Below are positions 8,958 through 31,757 of a stretch of DNA of 64,000 nt, piece by piece. The DNA lies in assembly GCA_947478005.1 (NCBI GenBank), contig CANJVG010000005.1:1597-65596 (forward strand), read 5' to 3'. The first letter of the stretch is position 1; every line of letters begins with the position of its first letter. The stretch is from Bacteroidota bacterium. GTDB taxonomy: Bacteria; Bacteroidota; Bacteroidia; Chitinophagales; LD1. The translations under genes and the position numbers were made by a program. Below the pieces are notes generated by a model that was given only the letters and a program-made list of their open reading frames with translations, had not been told where the DNA came from and searched no databases.

Positions 8958-9200
8958 CCGCGAGACGCGGGCGCGCTATCCGTTCCGCTCTTTTTTTGCG
9001 GTATTCTGTCCTCCGCTGGCGGAGGTGGCTCGCTGCTCCGAGCGAGACGGAGGTGGATGTATTTCCTCTTCACTCACCGCAAAAAAAGGAGCTCCACTAC
9101 TATCGCTAATCCAACAGCCGCCCTTCACTCAATGCTTTGTCGTTCTGAACGAAGGTACCCGAAGCGAAGAAATGGAGCAAAGCGGAATTCACGAATTCCG
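8958..9200. repeat. GC-rich nested-hairpin element (REP/MITE-like, or a structured RNA)
   Basis: Small hairpins at 8958-8970, 9010-9025 and 9029-9046. The latter two are enclosed by an outer stem (8987-9002 / 9076-9092, T7/A7 plus flanks). There is also a palindrome CGGAATTCACGAATTCCG at 9183-9200. Confidence 0.5.
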
Positions 9201-9356: not shown

Positions 9357-10226
9357 ATGATAAAATTTATATTGGGCATTCTATTCTTAATAATTGTTGC
9401 GGTTGCTTACATTTTAGGGCTTAGAACTCTTCATCTTGATTTACTTGAAACATTTACATCAGAAGCCAGTGGTGCTGCATTTGGTGGATTTATTGGTGGC
9501 TTATTTGTATGGTCGATGCGTGAAGTCTATGTACATTGGAGAAAAAGACCAAAACATGTTGTTACATATTTTGTTGCTGACAATAAGGAAGAAATTTATG
9601 GTAAGCTATTACATCATCGGGGTGAGCGAGTTTTAAATAAGGATGAAATAAAAAAGGTGCTAGGTGATAATGTAAACTCGGAAGTAATTAGTAATGGATT
9701 ATGGGAATATAAATTAACAGCAGATCATTTGCATAAGAATAAGGCTGCGTTCTATGGTCCCTATACTTATGATTTAACCGAGCCCGGAACTTATGAAGCA
9801 AGCTTTCACTATTATGGTAGAGGTTTTGAGGAAAAAAAGGAGGAAAATCCTATGTTGTTTCATGTTGATGTGGTTTTGAAACAAAATATTGATGAACACC
9901 TCCAATATTATGACGATAATGCTCAACTTATACCTGTTCAAAATAAGCATATTGGACAGAAGAAAGTCATAATTAAAGGTAAGAAGCACCTTTATTATAA
10001 AGATTTTATTGCCGACAAAAAAAAAGAAGCAAACTCTGGAAGGGTTATGAAATTAAGATTTTATTATGATGGCGTGGGTGATTTTGAATTTCGAGCTTAT
10101 GTTCCCGATCAACCTGACACTGCTTTTGGAGAAGTTGTTACTCTTCTTGGAAAGGGCTGCCGTGTATTTTTCTTCAAAGTCGAAATCAATCAAGTTTTCG
10201 CAATTGAAATACCCGAAGCTATTTAG
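9357..10226 (+). CDS. hypothetical membrane protein (two N-terminal TM helices plus a ~220 aa soluble domain)
   Basis: 289 aa ORF in an AT-rich islet. TM1 is FILGILFLIIVAVAYILGL and TM2 is AAFGGFIGGLFVWSM. I recognise no family motif. Confidence 0.6.
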   Translation: MIKFILGILFLIIVAVAYILGLRTLHLDLLETFTSEASGAAFGGFIGGLFVWSMREVYVHWRKRPKHVVTYFVADNKEEIYGKLLHHRGERVLNKDEIKKVLGDNVNSEVISNGLWEYKLTADHLHKNKAAFYGPYTYDLTEPGTYEASFHYYGRGFEEKKEENPMLFHVDVVLKQNIDEHLQYYDDNAQLIPVQNKHIGQKKVIIKGKKHLYYKDFIADKKKEANSGRVMKLRFYYDGVGDFEFRAYVPDQPDTAFGEVVTLLGKGCRVFFFKVEINQVFAIEIPEAI

Positions 10227-10268
10227 TGCCATAGAAACCAGTTTAGGTTATATCAATATCCACTAACA

Positions 10269-11021
10269 ATGATTCAACAATATGAAAACACTTTAAGGAA
10301 TATTATTTCCATGATAATCGGATCTTCTGACACGGTTGATTATGGAATAACTCAAGAAAGAATTGGAAAATGGAAGGAAAAACGAGAAATAGAAAAAAAG
10401 AAATATTCAGGAATTCTTACGGAGCCCCGAATAATCTATTACTCTGATTTTTTTGATTTAAAGGTTATCATTGGAAAAAGATGGGAATTGTTCAAGGATA
10501 TCTTAATCGAAAAAAAGAGATTTGACGTTCTCTTTGATGAAGTTGAAATGTTTAGAAATACAATTGCACACGGAAGAGAATTATTCCCTCACCAAAAGGA
10601 ATTGTTAGCAGGTATTGTAGGTGATTTAAAACTTAAGCTTGTAATTTATCATAATAAGGGCATGAATACAGATGACTATTTTATCAAAATTTTGAAGGTT
10701 TCCGATAGCCTAGGGAACACAGGCGAATGGAAACAGGAGAGCAACATAGCAATCAGAGCAAAAAAGAATTTGAAAGTTGGTGATGAAATCGACATTCTGG
10801 TAGATGCCTATGATCCTAAAGGTAGACAAATTAAATATGAGTTAACTGGTCATCACAATGGGAATTGGTATAGAGTTTCAAGCGATAAAAATTGTCTCAA
10901 ATTTAAGGCAGGCAAAGAAATGATTTCTCAAATCTATGGACTTCACATTAGCGTTTCAACTGAAGAAGCTGACTATAAAAATGAGGCTAGAGCAAATATA
11001 TTGTATTCGATACTGCCATAA
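10269..11021 (+). CDS. Swt1-like HEPN domain protein with an unassigned C-terminal domain
   Basis: HEPN Rx4H motif FRNTIAHGR (R96...H101, nt 10554-10571). Before it lie helical segments typical of Swt1-like HEPN (LRNIISMII...W..KRE...YSDFFDLKVII..RWELF). The gene sits 42 nt downstream of the membrane protein on the same strand. Confidence 0.65.
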   Translation: MIQQYENTLRNIISMIIGSSDTVDYGITQERIGKWKEKREIEKKKYSGILTEPRIIYYSDFFDLKVIIGKRWELFKDILIEKKRFDVLFDEVEMFRNTIAHGRELFPHQKELLAGIVGDLKLKLVIYHNKGMNTDDYFIKILKVSDSLGNTGEWKQESNIAIRAKKNLKVGDEIDILVDAYDPKGRQIKYELTGHHNGNWYRVSSDKNCLKFKAGKEMISQIYGLHISVSTEEADYKNEARANILYSILP

Positions 11022-23523: not shown

Positions 23524-24042
23524 ATGCCTTATGAATTCAAAGCTGAGTTGATTCCTGATGAACGAAAAGGGAAGGGTGTTACAAATATCTGTGTAGTAGT
23601 GCCCGCTAATTTAGCGCTGGAAATGAAGCACTACGACAAAAAGAAATCCTTCTATGTAAAGGGCCATCTGGACTATGTCAAATACGAAATGCTGCCGCTG
23701 GCTCCTGTGGGTGATGGTACTTTTCTGCTGCGCATACCACCCGCCTTGCGCAAAGAACTAAACAAGATAGCAGGCGACACGGTGAGCATAAGAATACAGA
23801 AGGACCGGAAGTATTATCCTATGAACTTTGAGTTCCGGCAACTGATTATAGAAGAAAGCCGCGATGCCTGGTTCTTTTATGCTTTGCTGCCTCCCGTGCA
23901 CCAACACTACTTTAATAAATGGATAGCCGAAGCAAAAACCGAAGATGATCGCGCTGAAAGAATGCTGCGCACACTCGAAGCCTTGAAAAACAAAGTACGG
24001 TTTACTAAAATGAAGAAGGGGAAGAAAGAATCGGACGTATGA
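23524..24042 (+). CDS. DUF1905 / YdeI (bacteriocin-protection)-family protein
   Basis: N-terminal DUF1905-like segment (...GDGTFLLRIPPALRKELNKIAGDTVSIRIQKD) and a C-terminal YdeI-like helix region (HQHYFNKWIAEAKTEDDRAERMLRTLEAL). Confidence 0.7.
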   Translation: MPYEFKAELIPDERKGKGVTNICVVVPANLALEMKHYDKKKSFYVKGHLDYVKYEMLPLAPVGDGTFLLRIPPALRKELNKIAGDTVSIRIQKDRKYYPMNFEFRQLIIEESRDAWFFYALLPPVHQHYFNKWIAEAKTEDDRAERMLRTLEALKNKVRFTKMKKGKKESDV

Positions 24043-24091: not shown

Positions 24092-24244
24092 CTATTTTGC
24101 AATTGGCGTTAACTTCGTTTTCTCTAAGTATGCTTTAAACTCTTCAAAGTTCATTCCCTTAATCTCTTTTGAGATTTTTGTTTTTATTTCTCTGAAAGTT
24201 TTTACTGTGTCAAAGTCCTTTTCAATTTTATTCTTCGTTTCCAT
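24092..24244 (-). CDS. 50-aa small ORF overlapping the PIN gene stop; candidate antitoxin/partner (absent from the ORF track because it is under 60 aa)
   Basis: My own translation gives METKNKIEKDFDTVKTFREIKTKISKEIKGMNFEEFKAYLEKTKLTPIAK*. Its ATG at 24244 lies 17 nt inside the 3' end of the PIN ORF, which suggests translational coupling. Confidence 0.45.
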   Translation of the reverse strand: METKNKIEKDFDTVKTFREIKTKISKEIKGMNFEEFKAYLEKTKLTPIAK

Positions 24245-24695
24245 AACCTACTATTTCTTTTGGTGAATGAATGTTCAAGGAAGGATAACCCAAGCGCAAA
24301 TTTACGGAATTATATCCGCGTATACGATATACGTTTACAATGTGCTTGAAGTTCCAACTAACCAGCAAATCAACTTTGCTCAAAGTTGCAACTGCAATGT
24401 GAATGCAATCGTCAAAACTTGTTTCGCCTACAACTTTTTCGGAAACATAGGTTTGTGCCAACTGTATTGCCTCGGGCGTAACTTCTATTTTTTCTTTCCA
24501 ATCGTTGTTAAGGGAGAGAAAAAAATCTTTTACCCTTTCTGGCGCGTTGCTCAATTCGCTCTCGGTTAAACCGGAGTAAACGCAAATTATCTGACCTAAC
24601 TTTACTTTCTCAAACAACAGTGTTGTTTCTAATTCAAATTCTGTGTCAAAGATGCCACCAATTACTGAAGTATCAATGTAAAATCGCTGTCTCAT
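24228..24695 (-). CDS. PIN-domain protein (VapC-like toxin nuclease)
   Basis: Start reassigned to MRQRFYIDTSVIGG (the first acidic residue sits in the YIDTS context). Further conserved acidic positions are in ...SELS..., ...FDDCIHIAVA... and ...LVSWNFKH. The 58 N-terminal residues in the track are antisense to the duplicated ydeI fragment. Confidence 0.7.
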   Translation of the reverse strand: MRQRFYIDTSVIGGIFDTEFELETTLLFEKVKLGQIICVYSGLTESELSNAPERVKDFFLSLNNDWKEKIEVTPEAIQLAQTYVSEKVVGETSFDDCIHIAVATLSKVDLLVSWNFKHIVNVYRIRGYNSVNLRLGYPSLNIHSPKEIVGYGNEE

Positions 24696-24726
24696 TAGAA
24701 CGAAGATAATACCTTCCTTTAAAACT

Positions 24727-24853
24727 ACCAGCACTACTTTAATAAATGGATAGCCGAAGCAAAAACCGAAGATGAGCGCGCAGAAAGAATGCTGCGCACA
24801 CTCGAAGCCTTGAAAAACAAAGTGCGGTTTACTAAAATGAAGAAGGGGAAATA
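24727..24853 (+). pseudogene. displaced duplicate of the 3' end of the ydeI-like gene
   Basis: 24727-24851 is near-identical to 23900-24024. It would encode ...HYFNKWIAEAKTEDERAERMLRTLEALKNKVRFTKMKKGK* with no 5' part. Confidence 0.8.
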
Positions 24854-24948
24854 AGGGCTTTGTAAACAAGCGTTAAATATTAGCTTGATAAAATAATACG
24901 GAAGGCCGGTCTGCGTTTGGAAAGCATTTTTAACCAAACCCTGACAGC

Positions 24949-25716: not shown

Positions 25717-25994
25717 GGAGGGTTTATTGATAACGTTTCGCAGCTCCCTAAAGGGCGGGACTTTTAGCACAAAACTTGATTTGAAAAACTAAACTTTCAC
25801 TAACCATAAAACTGTCTTTGGAAAATGAAACCCACCTTTAGGGTAGGTGCTGTTATCTCTTCGCTGTTTTTTTTCGGTCGTGGATTGTCTGTCCATTTTG
25901 TTTTGTCTTTGTGCGTTTGCGTGGGAGCTCTTTTATAATTTTTGCTCTGTGTGTTGCCTTGTGCGAATTGTAAATGTACTGCTAACTGCGCTGG

Positions 25995-27374
25995 CTATTT
26001 CAAATATATTTCGTCTCTTACATAAGTGTTGTTAAGCCAAAAACAATGCTTTGTATATTCTTTTGCTTTCGTCAGTTTGTCCTTTGTCGGCAAAGGGTAG
26101 GTGTCTGCTGCATTACTGGCGTGTGGTCTGACGTGTGATACTGAATTGAAAGATTTATTAGGAAAGTTAGTGTAACGTGTTGTACCGATTACTTCTTTTA
26201 CAATTTTACCTTTTGAAACAATGTCTTTTGTTTTTGCCCAAACTTTTTCTGCTTCCAAAATATCAGCATACGGCATATTCCAAAACTTCACTTTTCTTAA
26301 AACCAGTTGTTCCTTTTCAAATTGGAAGAACACAAATAGAAATTTATGCTCTAAAATATCCTTGAAATTAGAGTCGTCCCATTCTTCATTTACAATTTCT
26401 TCGTATTTGAAATTTGGAAACGAAATATCCTCTTTCGGTAAGTCATTTTCCTTTAGTCTTACTGTCTTTACAACGATTTCAGCCTTTTCGAACTCTTCAA
26501 TTTCTTTATCAAGTTCAATACCTAAAATTGCTTTTGTAAGACTTGCATAAAAACTTTTAGCTGTTTTATTAAGTTCAACTCCAGTTGAAGTAAGGATTTG
26601 CTCAATTGTCTTGCCATAATACGGTTTAAATTTTGAAATTACGATTTCTTCAATTGTTTGCTTTTTAGCAACTGCAACAGACGGAATTAGTTTCCCATAA
26701 ACTTCTTTTGTCTCCCCAGCTATTGAAGCAATAATATGATTGACATAACCTTGTTTTAGCGAATATGCTCTTTGTTTAGCAGGGATTTTAGAAAAAGGTT
26801 GTTTTCTAACAGTCAAAGCATTTGCACCTTTTGTGCAAGCACCTAAATAAAAAGTGTCGCCTTCTGAAAGTTCGTGAGCCTTGCCGTCAGCTACTTTTTG
26901 CTTAATCAGTTGCCAGTCTTTTTTGATGATTTCCAAATCTGTATTTGGAAAGTTCCACTCATCAACAAGTTTTATCAGGTAATCAAGAATATCAAATCCT
27001 GATTGATGCAAATAGAAAATCAAAAGAATGTTTGCATTCTTTTTCCAAAAATCACTTTCGTCAAACGATTGGTCAACTATTTTCAAATAGTCAATAATGC
27101 TTAATACCAATCTTTCTTTTGAACGATATTCATTATTCTTCAACTGCTTTAGAGGCGAGGATTTGAGTTCCATTCCTATCTCAAAAAAGTCAGCTTCTGA
27201 TTTGGAATTTGGATCATAACCAAAATAAAACTTCTCAAGTATTTGCCCGAAGTTTCCTTTGCCTATGTAGTTGTGTTCTAAAATTAGCGGGTCGCAAATC
27301 TCTCTTAAAGTTTTACCTTTAAGCAACTTAGCATAATCAATAACTGATTTTTTATCTTTCGGATTATATACCAC
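25995..27374 (-). CDS. type II restriction endonuclease, Sau3AI / MutH family (predicted GATC specificity)
   Basis: Strong resemblance to my recollection of R.Sau3AI: GKGNFGQILEKFYFG...EADFFEIGMELKSSPLK...YRSKERLVLSIIDY...IKKDWQLIKQKVADGKAHELSEGDTFYLGACTKGANA...KQRAYSLKQGY...SHVRPH. Confidence 0.8.
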   Translation of the reverse strand: MVYNPKDKKSVIDYAKLLKGKTLREICDPLILEHNYIGKGNFGQILEKFYFGYDPNSKSEADFFEIGMELKSSPLKQLKNNEYRSKERLVLSIIDYLKIVDQSFDESDFWKKNANILLIFYLHQSGFDILDYLIKLVDEWNFPNTDLEIIKKDWQLIKQKVADGKAHELSEGDTFYLGACTKGANALTVRKQPFSKIPAKQRAYSLKQGYVNHIIASIAGETKEVYGKLIPSVAVAKKQTIEEIVISKFKPYYGKTIEQILTSTGVELNKTAKSFYASLTKAILGIELDKEIEEFEKAEIVVKTVRLKENDLPKEDISFPNFKYEEIVNEEWDDSNFKDILEHKFLFVFFQFEKEQLVLRKVKFWNMPYADILEAEKVWAKTKDIVSKGKIVKEVIGTTRYTNFPNKSFNSVSHVRPHASNAADTYPLPTKDKLTKAKEYTKHCFWLNNTYVRDEIYLK

Positions 27375-27376
27375 AG

Positions 27377-29230
27377 TTAGAAACCCATTTTACTTTTTAA
27401 ATCTACACACCATATATCATGAGCCTTTCTAGTAATGTCATCTAATCGCTTTGTAATTGCCTCAAAACTTTGTTCGGTCCTTATTCTATCAAAGTCCCAA
27501 TCCTTAGATTCTATTTTCTCAATTAATTCAAGTACTAATTTTAAATTGGGTTTACTTTCTCTTATCAATACTAGTTTTTCAGATATTATTTTATTTTCAA
27601 GTTGCCCATTTAATTTTTTACTAATCAGTGTTAGGTTACCTAACGTATTTACATAAGGTTTAGTAGTTTTTTTAGCAACATTCCACTTTTTAGATTCTCT
27701 TGGCAGAATATGTTCTATACTTACTTTCTCTTCATCATATCCTTCTGTCTGGTTACCACCTATTTTTTCCTCAATTTCATTTAATACATATCTGATAATG
27801 ATTCTTGATTTTTGATCATCTTTATATTCAATGCTTTTGAATCCGTCTATAAAATCATCACTATAAGATGAGGGTATTTTTGACTTGAAGTTATTATAAA
27901 GGTCACTTGTAAAAAGATTCAGTACTTCATTCGTTTTGTTCTTATGAATTTTTTCTTCAATCTTCTCACAAAAATCACAGATTTGACTAAAATACCAGTT
28001 ACCCGGTAGGCTTAGAATCTGAAAATATAAAAAAGTGAATTTTTCTATTATTTGCCACCTGTTTGATAGTTTAGATTTTATTCTTTTCGGGTTACTTAAG
28101 TCTAGGTTTCTAAAAAGACATAAGTACAGAATAATCCATGTTTTGGCTTTTGTATTCCTTAATACTCGCAAACTATTATATACTTTTAATGCCTCGTTTC
28201 TGTCACGTTCAAAAAAGCCAAGTATGTCTTCAAACCCACCATTAAGGATAATATTTAAATAATTAGAATTAGCAACCAAATTATCTAAAAACGAATCCCA
28301 TTCCTTTTTAGATGTTTTAAATTTTTCTTTTATTGCCGAATACAGTTTTTTATCCGATATGTACTCATAACGTGAAGACCAATAATAGCTTAGAAAGTCT
28401 TTTAGAGAGAAATCGATGCGGTCCAAATTTTCTAAAATTTGAGCCCACCTTTCTTTAGCTGAATCAATATATTTATCGTCACTACCAACAACATTTTTAA
28501 AAATTTGATTTTTAATTAAGTCTGCTACACTTAAATCAATCCCTTTTGCATTAACAGATTCAAATATTTCATAAGCAAGATTTTCATCGTCAATTTCTAT
28601 TTTTACGAAGTAGTGTTTCGACAATCTATTGTCTACTAATGCCTTTAACCAATTAAAAGTTTCTTCAAAATTCAGGGCCTTAGTTTCACCTTCTATAATA
28701 TTTTGAAATTTCAAGTAGGCCTTTTTTACCTTTTCTTCTTCTGAACCTTTTGGCACTGAAAGTTTTTCGGTAATCAGAGTTGGAGGGTTGTCTTGAATGT
28801 GCTTTTCAAAAAAAACTTTAATTGAATCCCCCGGGATTAAGAAATTGTGAAATTTATTTTCGTCAAAATCGTCTTGTGTTCCAAGAAATATTTTATTAAA
28901 ACCATTAGCTTTATTCTTATAATCGGATACTTTTTCATGCTTACCTTTACTTAATAACGTATCCCGAATAACAGATCCTAAAATTTGAATAGTTAAATAT
29001 CTTTGTTGACCATCAATTATTTCGATGATATTTTTGTCACTTTCCTTTACATTAAAAATGACAGTACCAAGAAATACTGGCAATTCAGAATTAATGGTTT
29101 CCCAAAATTCTGCTATTTGTTTTTCTTCCCAGGTATATTGTCTTTGAAACCGTGGGATTCGGAAATTATTCTTTGGCTTAATATAAACTTCACCAATGTT
29201 TGTTTTAACTACAAAATTACTTGTTGACAT
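27377..29230 (-). CDS. DUF262 (ParB-like N-terminal) + DUF1524 (HNH/His-Me-like C-terminal) protein, GmrSD-like type IV restriction family
   Basis: The N-terminus has IPRFQRQYTWEEKQIAEFWETI and IIDGQQRYLT. The C-terminus has VSIEHILPR...NTLGNLTLISKKLN. It overlaps the MTase gene by 22 nt, and its stop lies 2 nt before the endonuclease start. Confidence 0.8.
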   Translation of the reverse strand: MSTSNFVVKTNIGEVYIKPKNNFRIPRFQRQYTWEEKQIAEFWETINSELPVFLGTVIFNVKESDKNIIEIIDGQQRYLTIQILGSVIRDTLLSKGKHEKVSDYKNKANGFNKIFLGTQDDFDENKFHNFLIPGDSIKVFFEKHIQDNPPTLITEKLSVPKGSEEEKVKKAYLKFQNIIEGETKALNFEETFNWLKALVDNRLSKHYFVKIEIDDENLAYEIFESVNAKGIDLSVADLIKNQIFKNVVGSDDKYIDSAKERWAQILENLDRIDFSLKDFLSYYWSSRYEYISDKKLYSAIKEKFKTSKKEWDSFLDNLVANSNYLNIILNGGFEDILGFFERDRNEALKVYNSLRVLRNTKAKTWIILYLCLFRNLDLSNPKRIKSKLSNRWQIIEKFTFLYFQILSLPGNWYFSQICDFCEKIEEKIHKNKTNEVLNLFTSDLYNNFKSKIPSSYSDDFIDGFKSIEYKDDQKSRIIIRYVLNEIEEKIGGNQTEGYDEEKVSIEHILPRESKKWNVAKKTTKPYVNTLGNLTLISKKLNGQLENKIISEKLVLIRESKPNLKLVLELIEKIESKDWDFDRIRTEQSFEAITKRLDDITRKAHDIWCVDLKSKMGF

Positions 29231-30501
29231 AAGTTAATTTTCTTGTTTAATGATAGTCCTATTTTTTCAATTACACCAACAACCAAAGCGTTACCCATAA
29301 AGAAAGCTCGTTTTGTATCTGAAACCCCTTCTAGTTTTGTGTGGTCGTCTGGAAACATATTTAGGCGTTCAAGTTCGACTGGTGAAAGTCTTCTGAACCC
29401 TTTTGGGGTTTGAATGACGTGTTTAAATCTTGATGGAGATTTGCCACCCTCACCGGTTATAATTGTTCTTGAAGGTTTGTCTAATGGGTCCGGGAAAATC
29501 ATTCCACCTTCACTATAATTGTATTCAAAACCTTGTGCGTTTGTCCGCATTTCTTTTTTCGGCCCTTTTAAATACGCCCATTTATCAAGGTCGTTTTTGT
29601 CAATATAAAACTCTGATGTTACTTCTCCGTTTTGAATAAGGTCTCTCAAAATCGTGAACTTTCCATCAAAGTTTGGTTGCGTTTTAAGGGTTGTAACCAA
29701 ACCATTAATCATTAAACCTGTATTTTCAAAAAGTCCACTAGTTCCACATTTGTTGAAGTTTTCAGAAATAGAAACGATGTCTCCTTTGAGTTTAAATTCT
29801 GTCGGAAGCAAAGTATTAGCAGATGTTACAGGAAATGCTTTTGCTAAAGTTCCTTCTTCTATAATCCATTCAACTGGCGCAACTTCGTTGATATTTTCAT
29901 AAATGTTTGTTCCTTGTAAATAGGCCAATATGAAAATTCTTCTCCTGCGTTGAGGCATCCCAAAATCCGCTGCATTGATAATTCGCCACTCAACCGCATA
30001 GCCCAATGCATTTAGACTTTGTAAGATAATTGCAAAGTCCCGCCCTCGTTGTCCCGATGGCGAAATGAGAAGCCTGTCTACGTTTTCGAGGAATAGATAT
30101 TTAGGTTTATTCTTTTTCTCTGAAATTATTTTGTGAATGCTCCACCACAAAACTCCCTTTTTTCCGATAAGTCCTTTTGAGTTTTTTAGGGTTGTGGCAA
30201 CTGAATAATCTTGGCAAGGAAAACCGCCAACCAATAAGTCGTGGTCGGGGATTTTTGAAGTATCAACTTGCGAAATATCTTCGTTCGTATGCCCATCTTT
30301 TCCAAAACGATTTTCATATACTAATGAGGCGTGCTGAGTTTTTGTCGATGGCTCCCATTGGTTACTCCAAACTACTTCATAATTTGTTTTGAGAGTTTTT
30401 TTATAGCCCGATGAGGCAGATTTTTTATTCAAACCTTCAAGCCCAAGTCGAAAGCCACCAACGCCCGCAAATAATTCTACAACTTTTATTTTACCTTCCA
30501 T
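29209..30501 (-). CDS. DNA (cytosine-5)-methyltransferase, M.Sau3AI-like
   Basis: Motif I ELFAGVGGFRLGL, motif IV GGFPCQDYS, motif VI ENV, motif VIII QRRRRIF and motif X GNALVV. The overall pattern is very close to my recollection of M.Sau3AI (WSNQWEPS..., RGRDFAIILQSLNALGYAVEWRIINAADFG). Confidence 0.9.
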   Translation of the reverse strand: MEGKIKVVELFAGVGGFRLGLEGLNKKSASSGYKKTLKTNYEVVWSNQWEPSTKTQHASLVYENRFGKDGHTNEDISQVDTSKIPDHDLLVGGFPCQDYSVATTLKNSKGLIGKKGVLWWSIHKIISEKKNKPKYLFLENVDRLLISPSGQRGRDFAIILQSLNALGYAVEWRIINAADFGMPQRRRRIFILAYLQGTNIYENINEVAPVEWIIEEGTLAKAFPVTSANTLLPTEFKLKGDIVSISENFNKCGTSGLFENTGLMINGLVTTLKTQPNFDGKFTILRDLIQNGEVTSEFYIDKNDLDKWAYLKGPKKEMRTNAQGFEYNYSEGGMIFPDPLDKPSRTIITGEGGKSPSRFKHVIQTPKGFRRLSPVELERLNMFPDDHTKLEGVSDTKRAFFMGNALVVGVIEKIGLSLNKKINLCQQVIL

Positions 30502-30814
30502 CGTGAACTGCTTTTAGGTATTTAACTTTTTCTTCTGCTACTTTCAAAATGCTTAAATCTGCTTCTTCCTCAAGAATTCTATATGCAATTTGGTCACTTA
30601 AAAAATTGTTTTGCAAGTCCTTTTCGTCAACCTTAAAATATGCTGCAATCCCTTTAATTATCTGCTTGGTTGGTTGTCTTTCATTGCGTTCAATTTTAGC
30701 AAGTAAAGAAGGGTCAACACTAATATCTTCTGCAACAGTTTTGAGCGTTAATCTGGCTTCTTCTCTAAGGTTTCTAAGATGCTCTCCGAAAGATTCTGTC
30801 TTTTTAATTGCCAT
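30491..30814 (-). CDS. XRE-family helix-turn-helix regulator (candidate R-M controller / C-protein)
   Basis: FGEHLRNLREEARLTLKTVAEDISVDPSLLAKIERNERQPT is a classic HTH_3 motif. ATG at 30814 is preferred over the TTG at 30823. The 3' end overlaps the MTase start by 11 nt. Confidence 0.8.
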   Translation of the reverse strand: MAIKKTESFGEHLRNLREEARLTLKTVAEDISVDPSLLAKIERNERQPTKQIIKGIAAYFKVDEKDLQNNFLSDQIAYRILEEEADLSILKVAEEKVKYLKAVHDGR

Positions 30815-30827
30815 ATTGGTCAAATTA

Positions 30828-30874
30828 TGTCCAAATGTAAGTAGGAAAATGTTATGGACAAAAAAAGTCCAAAT
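30828..30874. promoter_or_regulatory. candidate operator (C-box-like) upstream of the XRE gene
   Basis: Inverted repeat TGTCCA (30828-30833) / TGGACA (30855-30860). Direct repeat GTCCAAAT at 30829-30836 and 30867-30874. The sites lie 14-60 nt upstream of the ATG. Confidence 0.35.
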
Positions 30875-31409
30875 AAGTTTTCAACAATGACTGGGTGGTG
30901 GGTGGGCTTTGGAGTGTCGGGCAAATTTAAATGTGTTGTTTTTGTGTCGGCTTGTGAGTTCCCAAAACAGCTCTTTTAATTTTGCGAAGCGATGGCAGTC
31001 TTTCCCTTTTCTGGTTGAAATTTTATCGTTTTATTCAGTCGTCCTACAATGAGGCATAACTTATTTATAGAGGTGGTTTTTATTTAGCTCCTATTTCCGT
31101 TCATTTTTGAAGCATCGGTACTAATTTCGACCTATCGTCACCTATTTGTCAGGCTTTTGACCGATATATTTCCAATTTTTGGTTTCAATTTTAGTAATTG
31201 ATTCATCAATAAGCCAATGTTTATGTGCATTTTATCACCTTGGTTCAAATCAATTTCTGAATTAGACTAAGTTCAATCAAATTTGTACTGATAAGTGCCC
31301 ATTGAGCAATGTGTTTGGCAAGTTATCACCTCGTTTTGCTAAATCTAGTTGATTTCTCTGCTTAAAAAATCTAAGTTTTACAGCATAAACCCTCATTTCT
31401 ACCTGAAAT

Positions 31410-31757
31410 AACCATTTCACTTCGTAACATCATTACGATAGCATCTATCGTAACCATTTCACTTCCTAACATCATTACGATAGCATCTATCGTGATCATT
31501 TTACTTCGTAACATCATTATGATAGCATCTATCGTGATCATTTTACTTCGTAACATCATTACGATAGCATCTATCGTGATCATTTTACTTCGTAACATCA
31601 TTACGATAGCATCTATCGTGATCATTTTACTTCGTAACATCATTAGGATAGCATCTATCGTAATCATTTCACTTCGTAACATCATTATGATAGCATCTAT
31701 CGTAACCATTTTACTTTGTAACATCATTATGATAGCATCTATCGTAATCATTTCAGA
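31410..31757. repeat. tandem array of a 42-bp unit, 8 full copies plus a partial, each carrying the palindrome ACGATAG-CAT-CTATCGT
   Basis: Units start at 31410, 31452, 31494, 31536, 31578, 31620, 31662 and 31704. Copies 3-6 read CGTGATCATT (containing GATC) where the others read CGTAACCATT or CGTAATCATT. Confidence 0.9.

Follow-up and report, generated by a model that had tools for sequence, protein, structure and literature searches.

The organization of a putative defence operon was analyzed in a 64-kb window of a Bacteroidota contig (CANJVG010000005.1); "the window" denotes this whole stretch of 64,000 nucleotides (nt). The operon is made of four open reading frames (ORFs) of the minus strand. 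They encode successively a small helix-turn-helix (HTH) protein, a C5-cytosine DNA methyltransferase (MTase), a protein of the GmrSD family (DUF262 plus DUF1524) and a Sau3AI-family restriction endonuclease (Table 1). The first, second and fourth genes correspond to a type II restriction-modification (R-M) cassette of order controller-methyltransferase-endonuclease (C-M-R), widespread in Bacteroidota, and the GmrSD-like gene is an insertion at the junction between M and R. The same arrangement was found in other genomes with unrelated flanking genes, and the same junction holds other genes elsewhere.

Genes and proteins of the operon

The reading frames are closely packed: the HTH and MTase genes overlap by 11 nt (30491-30501), the MTase and GmrSD-like genes by 22 nt (29209-29230), and a gap of 2 nt (27375-27376) separates the GmrSD-like gene from the endonuclease gene. 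The GC content is 0.29-0.35 over positions 26000-31500, compared to 0.42-0.46 on either flank. An initial annotation, made by a model from the sequence, had proposed the four gene identities, the AT-rich islet and these junction sizes; the former were borne out by profile searches (Pfam, NCBIfam and PADLOC), the latter two by the ORF listing and a GC scan. Its reading of the four genes as one tightly coupled transcription unit is plausible from the gene layout.

The MTase matches the Pfam DNA_methylase model over residues 5-418 (7.6e-64, 216.6 bits), the TIGR00675 dcm model (233 bits) and the PADLOC MTase_II model (1.9e-180). Motifs I, IV, VI, VIII and X were sought in the translation, which contains FAGVGG, GFPCQ, ENV, QRRRR and GNA. 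The endonuclease matches the NCBIfam equivalog NF040973 "Sau3AI family type II restriction endonuclease" over residues 7-456 (543 bits for a cut-off of 300), the Pfam MutH model in two stretches, and PADLOC REase_II (2.4e-101). Residues D62, E69 and K71 of its N-terminal domain, which form a MutH-like D-x(n)-E-x-K motif, are invariant in nine homologues of 45-93% identity.

The similarities of the two enzymes indicate that the R-M pair is probably GATC-specific. GATC has the lowest ratio of the 16 palindromic tetramers in the window (39 sites observed for 215 expected, ratio 0.18), below those of CTAG (0.25) and GTAC (0.47). This depletion fits GATC-directed restriction in this lineage. The pair resembles the GATC type II systems of the Sau3AI/LlaKR2I type by the NF040973 match, the two MutH-like domains, the 5-methylcytosine (m5C) MTase partner and the depletion of GATC in the host. 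It differs from them by the upstream controller gene, the C-M-R order and the presence of a third enzyme between M and R.

The GmrSD-like protein matches both domains of the family above the gathering scores (Pfam GmrSD_N, 8.6e-33, 114.6 bits; GmrSD_C, 8.2e-15, 55.3 bits). Its best PADLOC match is HEC-06 (PDLC04157, 2e-73), with residues 20-588 aligned to profile positions 20-545 of 558; the "Orf5" models come next, and SspE and type IV models match weakly. The expected motifs are all present: IIDGQQR at 71-77 (DGQQR at 73-77), EHILP at 506-510 (E506-H507), G531-N532-L533 and N541. DGQQR, EH, GNL and N541 are invariant in an alignment of 27 homologues whose identities range from 90% to 25%, so that the catalytic residues of the DUF262 and His-Me finger nuclease domains, whose loss would have contradicted the initial annotation, are intact. 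A role as a DndB-like regulator was rejected for this protein; its nuclease motifs are intact.

A search of the PDB with the GmrSD-like sequence alone gave no match. The AlphaFold2 (AF2) model (mean confidence score, pLDDT, 88) matches GmrSD-type structures only in Foldseek: DndI (9jfl, 3.7e-13), SspE (7drr, 7drs and 6jiv, 2.6e-10 to 1e-6) and BrxU (7p9k, 1.4e-6). The aromatic residue of the N-terminal hydrophobic sensing patch of DndI (Y25) and SspE (Y30) would correspond to F28 in the motif P-R-F-Q-R, a placement made only by the position of the motif P-x-aromatic-Q, formed in DndI by P23, Y25 and Q26. This P-x-F/Y-Q-R aromatic is F or Y in 27/27 aligned homologues; since it is a general DUF262 feature, it does not discriminate phosphorothioate sensing.

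The HTH protein is recognized by Pfam (HTH_31, 4e-11; HTH_3, 3e-10) and by the PADLOC model HTH_VI (8e-11), and weakly by Control_protein (3.5e-4). The initial annotation was right about the identity of this gene and the overlap of its end with the MTase gene; its start has to be revised, from the TTG at 30823 (ORF 30491-30823, 110 amino acids) to the ATG at 30814, which is aligned in 12 cassettes. Two operator-like inverted repeats precede this ATG. Both are near-invariant in the 12 cassettes although the surrounding upstream DNA is unalignable, and a block TTTGGACA-N4-TTGACCAATATG is conserved at the second one. They look like the operators of controller proteins, and may be bound by the HTH protein. 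A scan for sigma-70 promoters gave 20 candidates for 17 expected, which is the background level of a model unsuited to Bacteroidota promoters, and is uninformative on internal promoters.

In controller-regulated type II systems such as PvuII, AhdI and Esp1396I, the controller gene is transcribed with R, and M is transcribed separately. The present operon resembles these systems by its small HTH gene placed first and by two conserved inverted-repeat boxes just upstream of the start. It differs by the length of the HTH protein (107 amino acids), the weakness of the Control_protein match and the order C-M-(X)-R: C lies with M in the window and in the plain C-M-R cassettes, where the textbook arrangement has C co-transcribed with R and a separate promoter for M. 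Given this order and the overlapping frames, regulation may differ from the textbook delay circuit.

The C-M-R cassette and its M-R junction

The distribution of the cassette was surveyed in one genome per species, by scanning with an alignment of the endonuclease; the 58 loci obtained were summarized by tblastn. Proteins close to the endonuclease are abundant and strongly conserved, with more than 120 clusters at 87% identity or more, and the GmrSD-like protein is far rarer (8 clusters at 76% identity or more). M is followed by R on one strand in 40 of the 58 loci, almost all from Bacteroidota, and 34 of these 40 cassettes are complete. The distance between M and R is 8-72 nt in 25 of the 34, and the HTH gene usually comes first. 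Firmicutes and other groups show convergent, divergent or R-M layouts without an HTH gene. In Staphylococcus intermedius the genes form a plain R-M pair, with 32% identity to the window protein for R and 48% for M, the latter in a single continuous tblastn alignment (residues 4-420) that covers the target-recognition region. The identity of the window MTase to Clostridia MTases partnered with Sau3AI-family enzymes is 45-55%. The description of the Sau3AI prototype as a simple M/R pair in the initial annotation agrees with these data.

At the DNA level, the window and other cassettes are homologous (75-85%) from a point situated between 30873 and 30997, some 70-180 nt ahead of the HTH gene. The homology mostly stops at the endonuclease stop codon (25995), and a few loci continue for at most about 70 nt. 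The flanking genes differ in every genome compared. The backbone of the operon is a compact, horizontally mobile and widespread Bacteroidota C-M-R cassette. We found no sign of a phage-borne cassette in the viral contigs searched, where relatives of the GmrSD-like protein have at most 33% identity over full-length matches and no relative of the endonuclease was found. In a plasmid collection, tblastn gave only homologues of at most 31% identity, which are uninformative.

In blastn comparisons with more than 20 plain cassettes, the homology runs through M as far as 29234 and starts again, for R, at 27368/27369, which delimits the insertion. The breaks are exact, and the insert is therefore a single ORF-sized piece. 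Most plain cassettes have a single ATGA that contains both the stop codon of M and the start codon of R; in the window, the M stop is shifted and overlapped over 22 nt by the inserted ORF, whose own end is 2 nt away from R. The GmrSD-like gene is entirely missing from plain cassettes whose M and R reach about 90% identity, and was found in none of the 34 complete species-representative cassettes (0/34). The R-M pair does not need the GmrSD-like gene, because such cassettes exist without it.

About a quarter of the complete species-representative cassettes carry some cargo at this junction, hereafter the slot. The commonest cargo is a protein of about 389 amino acids, present in six of the 34 cassettes. 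Two others (L012 and L013) contain an ORF of about 80 amino acids, and a Chryseobacterium cassette (L021:4932-6983) contains a 392-aa protein with a DGNRR (ParB-like) motif together with a 290-aa alpha/beta hydrolase (PGAP1/DUF676; PADLOC LmuA, 3.9e-11). In L045 and L054 the cassette is partly replaced by a different R-M pair, and L059 has an insertion of an IS21 element.

More than 1000 homologues were counted in the ~389-aa family, which lacks a Pfam domain; Pfam, NCBIfam, PADLOC and PDB profile searches gave sub-threshold NucS matches only. The AF2 model (pLDDT 90) consists of an N-terminal domain, recognized solely through structure prediction and Foldseek, which matches EVE/YTH readers and the modification-dependent enzyme VcaM4I, and a C-terminal domain which matches the PD-(D/E)XK nuclease NucS/EndoMS, with weak sequence support. 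According to this predicted fold, the protein is probably a modification-dependent endonuclease. The GmrSD-like and EVE/NucS-like genes thus place two unrelated nucleases of reader-type architecture at one and the same junction.

Neighbour-joining trees of M and R do not separate the kinds of cassette: those with the GmrSD-like gene, those with the ~389-aa gene and the plain ones are interleaved. The modules of one locus, L002, have very different identities to the window: 76% for M, 66% for the GmrSD-like protein and 42% for R. Cargo and modules have therefore been repeatedly gained, lost or exchanged, and from these sequence comparisons the M-R junction behaves as an exchangeable slot for cargo. 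As a separate observation, in a Clostridia locus (L046:7666-12991) convergent Sau3AI-like R and M genes lie about 6 kb apart, with a similar spacing in L055 and L063. In L046, the gap contains genes for a NERD-UvrD-type helicase and for a 1212-aa DEAD/Helicase_C protein; cargo between R and M is therefore found in another phylum also.

Seven in-slot contexts, including the window, have the order (C-)M-GmrSD-R; their junctions overlap or abut, and their flanks are unrelated. The identities to the window GmrSD-like protein are distributed as follows: 82% in L001, 66% in L002-4, 61% in L005, 47% in L007/L008, and 40% in both L009 (Nonlabens) and L155. In the last case (L155:5551-7011) the MTase is longer (486 amino acids), there is no separate HTH gene and a tyrosine integrase gene lies upstream. 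In L007 and L008, which have a Vsr gene upstream, C-M-GmrSD is followed by a 204-aa ORF (9881-10495 in both loci) whose match to the Sau3AI-like enzyme is restricted to residues 234-456, the non-catalytic C-terminal half; M and the GmrSD-like gene are thus intact without the catalytic domain of R. The same gene set and order with tight junctions in independent genomes indicates that the arrangement is not due to chance. The initial annotation had considered that the middle gene might be a one-off passenger, which this neighbourhood comparison rules out.

Related GmrSD-like genes occur in four other layouts. They include a Parapedobacter island of order HTH-HNH-389aa-GmrSD with two Sau3AI-like genes and an m5C MTase (55% identity), the order GmrSD-BglII-R-M in Myroides (51%), an inverted gene between M and R on a conjugative element (42%) and a gene adjoining a convergent R/M pair (39%). 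In the Parapedobacter island (L154:5469-9860) the ~389-aa and GmrSD-like genes overlap by 4 nt behind the HTH and HNH genes, and an IS3-family (rve) transposase gene is present. In total, a Sau3AI-type M and/or R gene was found within 7 kb in 11 of the 11 neighbourhoods examined for this clade (39% identity or more). The linkage is lost below about 37% identity (P0066 and P0062 are without it), and none of 80 distant metagenome loci (0/80; 34% identity or less, among the matches listed), used as a negative control, has Sau3AI-type neighbours.

Table 1. Positions of the operon features in the window, and of the ~389-aa genes at the M-R junction of other cassettes
Feature	Position	Strand	Basis
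HTH controller-like gene, XRE/Cro-C1 type, 107 aa	30491..30814	-	Pfam, PADLOC; start = conserved ATG
C5-cytosine DNA methyltransferase, probably GATC-specific (M.Sau3AI-like), 430 aa	29209..30501	-	Pfam, TIGR00675, PADLOC, motifs
GmrSD-family protein (DUF262 NTPase + DUF1524 His-Me nuclease), HEC-06-like, 617 aa, inserted cargo	27377..29230	-	Pfam, PADLOC, AF2/Foldseek
Sau3AI-family type II restriction endonuclease, two MutH-like domains, 459 aa, GTG start	25995..27374	-	NF040973, Pfam, PADLOC
Insertion limits relative to plain C-M-R cassettes	27370..29233	-	blastn homology breaks
Operator-like inverted repeat 1, TGGAC-N7-GTCCA, putative C-box	30855..30871	-	sequence reading; near-invariant in 12 cassettes
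Operator-like repeat 2, GGACATAATTTGACC, imperfect GGAC-N7-GaCC	30818..30832	-	end lies 3 nt before HTH ATG
Terminator-like hairpin (candidate), ~150 nt 3' of endonuclease stop	25830..25848	-	pattern scan
~389-aa gene in slot	L010:5821-6990		
~389-aa gene in slot	L028:4142-5326		
~389-aa gene in slot	L030:5800-6969		
~389-aa gene in slot	L034:5800-6969		
~389-aa gene in slot	L052:5816-6979		
~389-aa gene in slot	L056:2574-3740		

Possible roles of the GmrSD-like nuclease

Nesting of defence genes is known for type I R-M, BREX, DISARM and Hma (helicase-methylase-ATPase) loci. RloF, a GmrSD-like protein, is encoded between hsdS and hsdR in type I R-M loci (PMC4619093); HEC-05 and HEC-06 are GmrSD-like genes nested in Hma, BREX and type I R-M, and HEC-06 protects E. 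coli alone, DGQQR and EH being required (bioRxiv 10.1101/2024.01.29.577857). BrxU, from the BREX locus of pEFER, cuts DNA containing 5mC, 5-hydroxymethylcytosine (5hmC) or glucosyl-5hmC and complements BREX (PMC8565348). The present operon shares with these cases a co-directional GmrSD-family nuclease with the same catalytic motifs inside a modification-based defence operon. It differs by its host, a three-gene type II operon (Hma in the description of HEC-06) with an ATGA-coupled M-R junction and overlapping frames; type II hosts were outside the survey of those studies.

A second precedent concerns the Sau3AI-type genes themselves: modification-dependent enzymes with DUF3427 (SauUSI-like), for example BwiMMI and EfaL9I, adjoin ORFs for a GATC-specific C5 MTase and a Sau3AI/MutH-like protein, and Lutz et al. 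reasoned that GAT5mC is not a substrate of these enzymes (PMC6765204). There too, a Sau3AI-type R-M system is paired with a putative cytosine-modification-dependent nuclease; the nuclease family is another one, and the association was described as adjacency, where here the gene is inserted within the operon. The initial annotation did not recognize this architecture as described. This holds for the exact combination, since a literature search combining Sau3AI and DUF262 gave no paper on it; GmrSD nesting in type I R-M, BREX and Hma and the DUF3427 adjacency are published. The architecture extends the known habit of embedding defence genes to a minimal type II operon, in which M-GmrSD-R is a recurring but minority variant.

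The reading we favour, with a probability of about 0.55, is that of a type II operon whose exchangeable M-R slot holds an autonomous, probably modification-targeting nuclease of the GmrSD/HEC-06 type as a complementary layer of defence, comparable to BrxU in BREX. One promoter, overlapping the two operator-like repeats to which the HTH protein would bind, would drive all four genes, with coupled translation. The methylase would mark the host GATC sites as GATm5C, and the Sau3AI-like enzyme would cut the unmethylated GATC sites of incoming DNA. The GmrSD-like enzyme would act alone as a second layer, most likely against hypermodified-cytosine DNA resistant to the Sau3AI-like enzyme, and would have to tolerate the sparse GATm5C marks of the host. 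Its autonomy is suggested by the fact that HEC-06, the best profile match, defends E. coli alone. The composite of type II and type IV systems put forward in the initial annotation is plausible in this form, supported by the recurrence in seven unrelated contexts. Its other suggestion, recruitment of the GmrSD-like protein as a new accessory component, is not supported, given the closely related plain cassettes and the unrelated cargo that the same junction carries elsewhere.

Several observations weigh against the reading as a complementary layer. The substrates of the GmrSD family vary: GmrSD itself acts on hmC and glucosyl-hmC, BrxU also on 5mC, and some members apparently need no modified DNA, such as EF_B0059, which is toxic even in methylation-free E. 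coli (PMC11322646). If the present enzyme cut 5mC DNA as BrxU does in vitro, it would conflict with the methylase of its own operon. Among solved structures, DndI and SspE, two readers of a host mark, are closer than BrxU; the C-M-R order is unusual among controller-regulated systems; and the clade is tied to Sau3AI-type genes in at least four arrangements, which goes beyond what would be predicted if any slot were suitable.

Alternatively, a single methylase might serve two restriction arms, the GmrSD-like protein reading GATm5C as a self tag and restricting DNA without the mark, in parallel with the Sau3AI-like enzyme. The analogy is with the dndFGHI and SspABCD-SspE systems, in which a DUF262+DUF1524 nuclease and a further restriction module are co-transcribed next to genes that modify the host DNA: DndI, transcribed together with dndFGH, shares their modification module and spares self DNA through the phosphorothioate mark of the host (PMC11662687). 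No dnd or ssp modification genes were found within about 6 kb of the operon, where the sole linked modification gene encodes an m5C MTase. The linkage to Sau3AI-type genes in all neighbourhoods of the clade, whatever the layout and with no such linkage in distant homologues, argues for this explanation. So do the ranking of DndI and SspE ahead of BrxU in Foldseek, and the L007/L008 loci, which keep M and the GmrSD-like gene with an endonuclease reduced to its non-catalytic half. However, HEC-06 is active without a cognate methylase, the linkage could be a trace of history (a single ancestral insertion, with later rearrangement and recombination through the conserved M and R flanks), and the Foldseek ranking may mirror conformation rather than function. 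The sensing-position aromatic does not separate the two possibilities, and the reader fold of the alternative ~389-aa cargo is of a kind typically found in modification-dependent enzymes. On balance we consider a self-tag role unlikely, and it is the main alternative.

The GmrSD-like gene could also be selfish or incidental cargo in a permissive recombination site, with no benefit linked to R-M. Its absence from the 34 species-representative cassettes, an indirect sign of co-occurrence with a GmrSD cluster in just 1 of the 120 closest endonuclease clusters (equal longest contig, 30,257 bp), the variable content of the slot and the interleaved trees would agree with such a gene. This is nevertheless improbable in view of the full-length ORF with all catalytic residues conserved from 90% down to 25% identity, of the tight coupled junctions in every in-slot case and of the persistence in the slot down to 40% identity. 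Finally, the nuclease might be a guard, held latent by the R-M proteins and freed when a phage anti-restriction factor inhibits them, by analogy with the classical case of PrrC nested in the EcoprrI type I locus (PMC12707154). Tight translational coupling would favour the formation of a complex. Against this, members of the clade are also found unlinked in orientation (L148, L150, L154), and HEC-06 is active alone; we consider a guard very improbable.

If the self-tag explanation were true, the operon would be to methylation what dndFGHI and Ssp-SspE are to phosphorothioate, with one m5C methylase and two co-transcribed nucleases of unrelated mechanisms. In a wider sense, the M-R junction would then be a dedicated docking slot where reader-nuclease modules (GmrSD-like, EVE-NucS-like) are swapped by recombination. 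At about 5 kb, the operon is a clonable natural system with isogenic plain relatives, suitable for testing modification-blocked and putatively modification-targeting nucleases as complementary layers. It could show whether GmrSD-like enzymes can recognize methylation of the host, in the way that DndI and SspE recognize phosphorothioate, and clarify the role of the large unannotated EVE-like/NucS-like family of ~389 amino acids. For annotation, the middle genes should be called separate type IV-like systems and not R-M subunits.

Surroundings of the operon

Genes within about 6 kb of the operon encode DUF1905/YdeI, TPR, MarC and desaturase proteins, along with unannotated ORFs. No helicase or ATPase gene adjoining the operon was found in the window annotation. 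A large defence island was rejected as the context of the operon: the flanking genes are ordinary, and the homology to other cassettes stops close to it. The AT-rich spacer upstream of the cassette contains a 42-bp tandem repeat (31409-31753; 8.2 copies, 95% matches), with GATC in four units, which lies outside the DNA common to other cassettes.

On the other side, a 129-nt direct repeat (23900-24028 and 24727-24855, 95% identity) copies the 3' end of the DUF1905/YdeI gene. It flanks two small minus-strand ORFs (24092-24244 and 24228-24869), both without Pfam match. This ORF pair resembles an inserted two-gene module and is possibly a toxin-antitoxin pair. Further away, a Flavo-1 RNA motif (RF01705) was found on the minus strand at 8965-9114; its score of 47.4 bits exceeds the gathering score, and its presence agrees with a Bacteroidota host.

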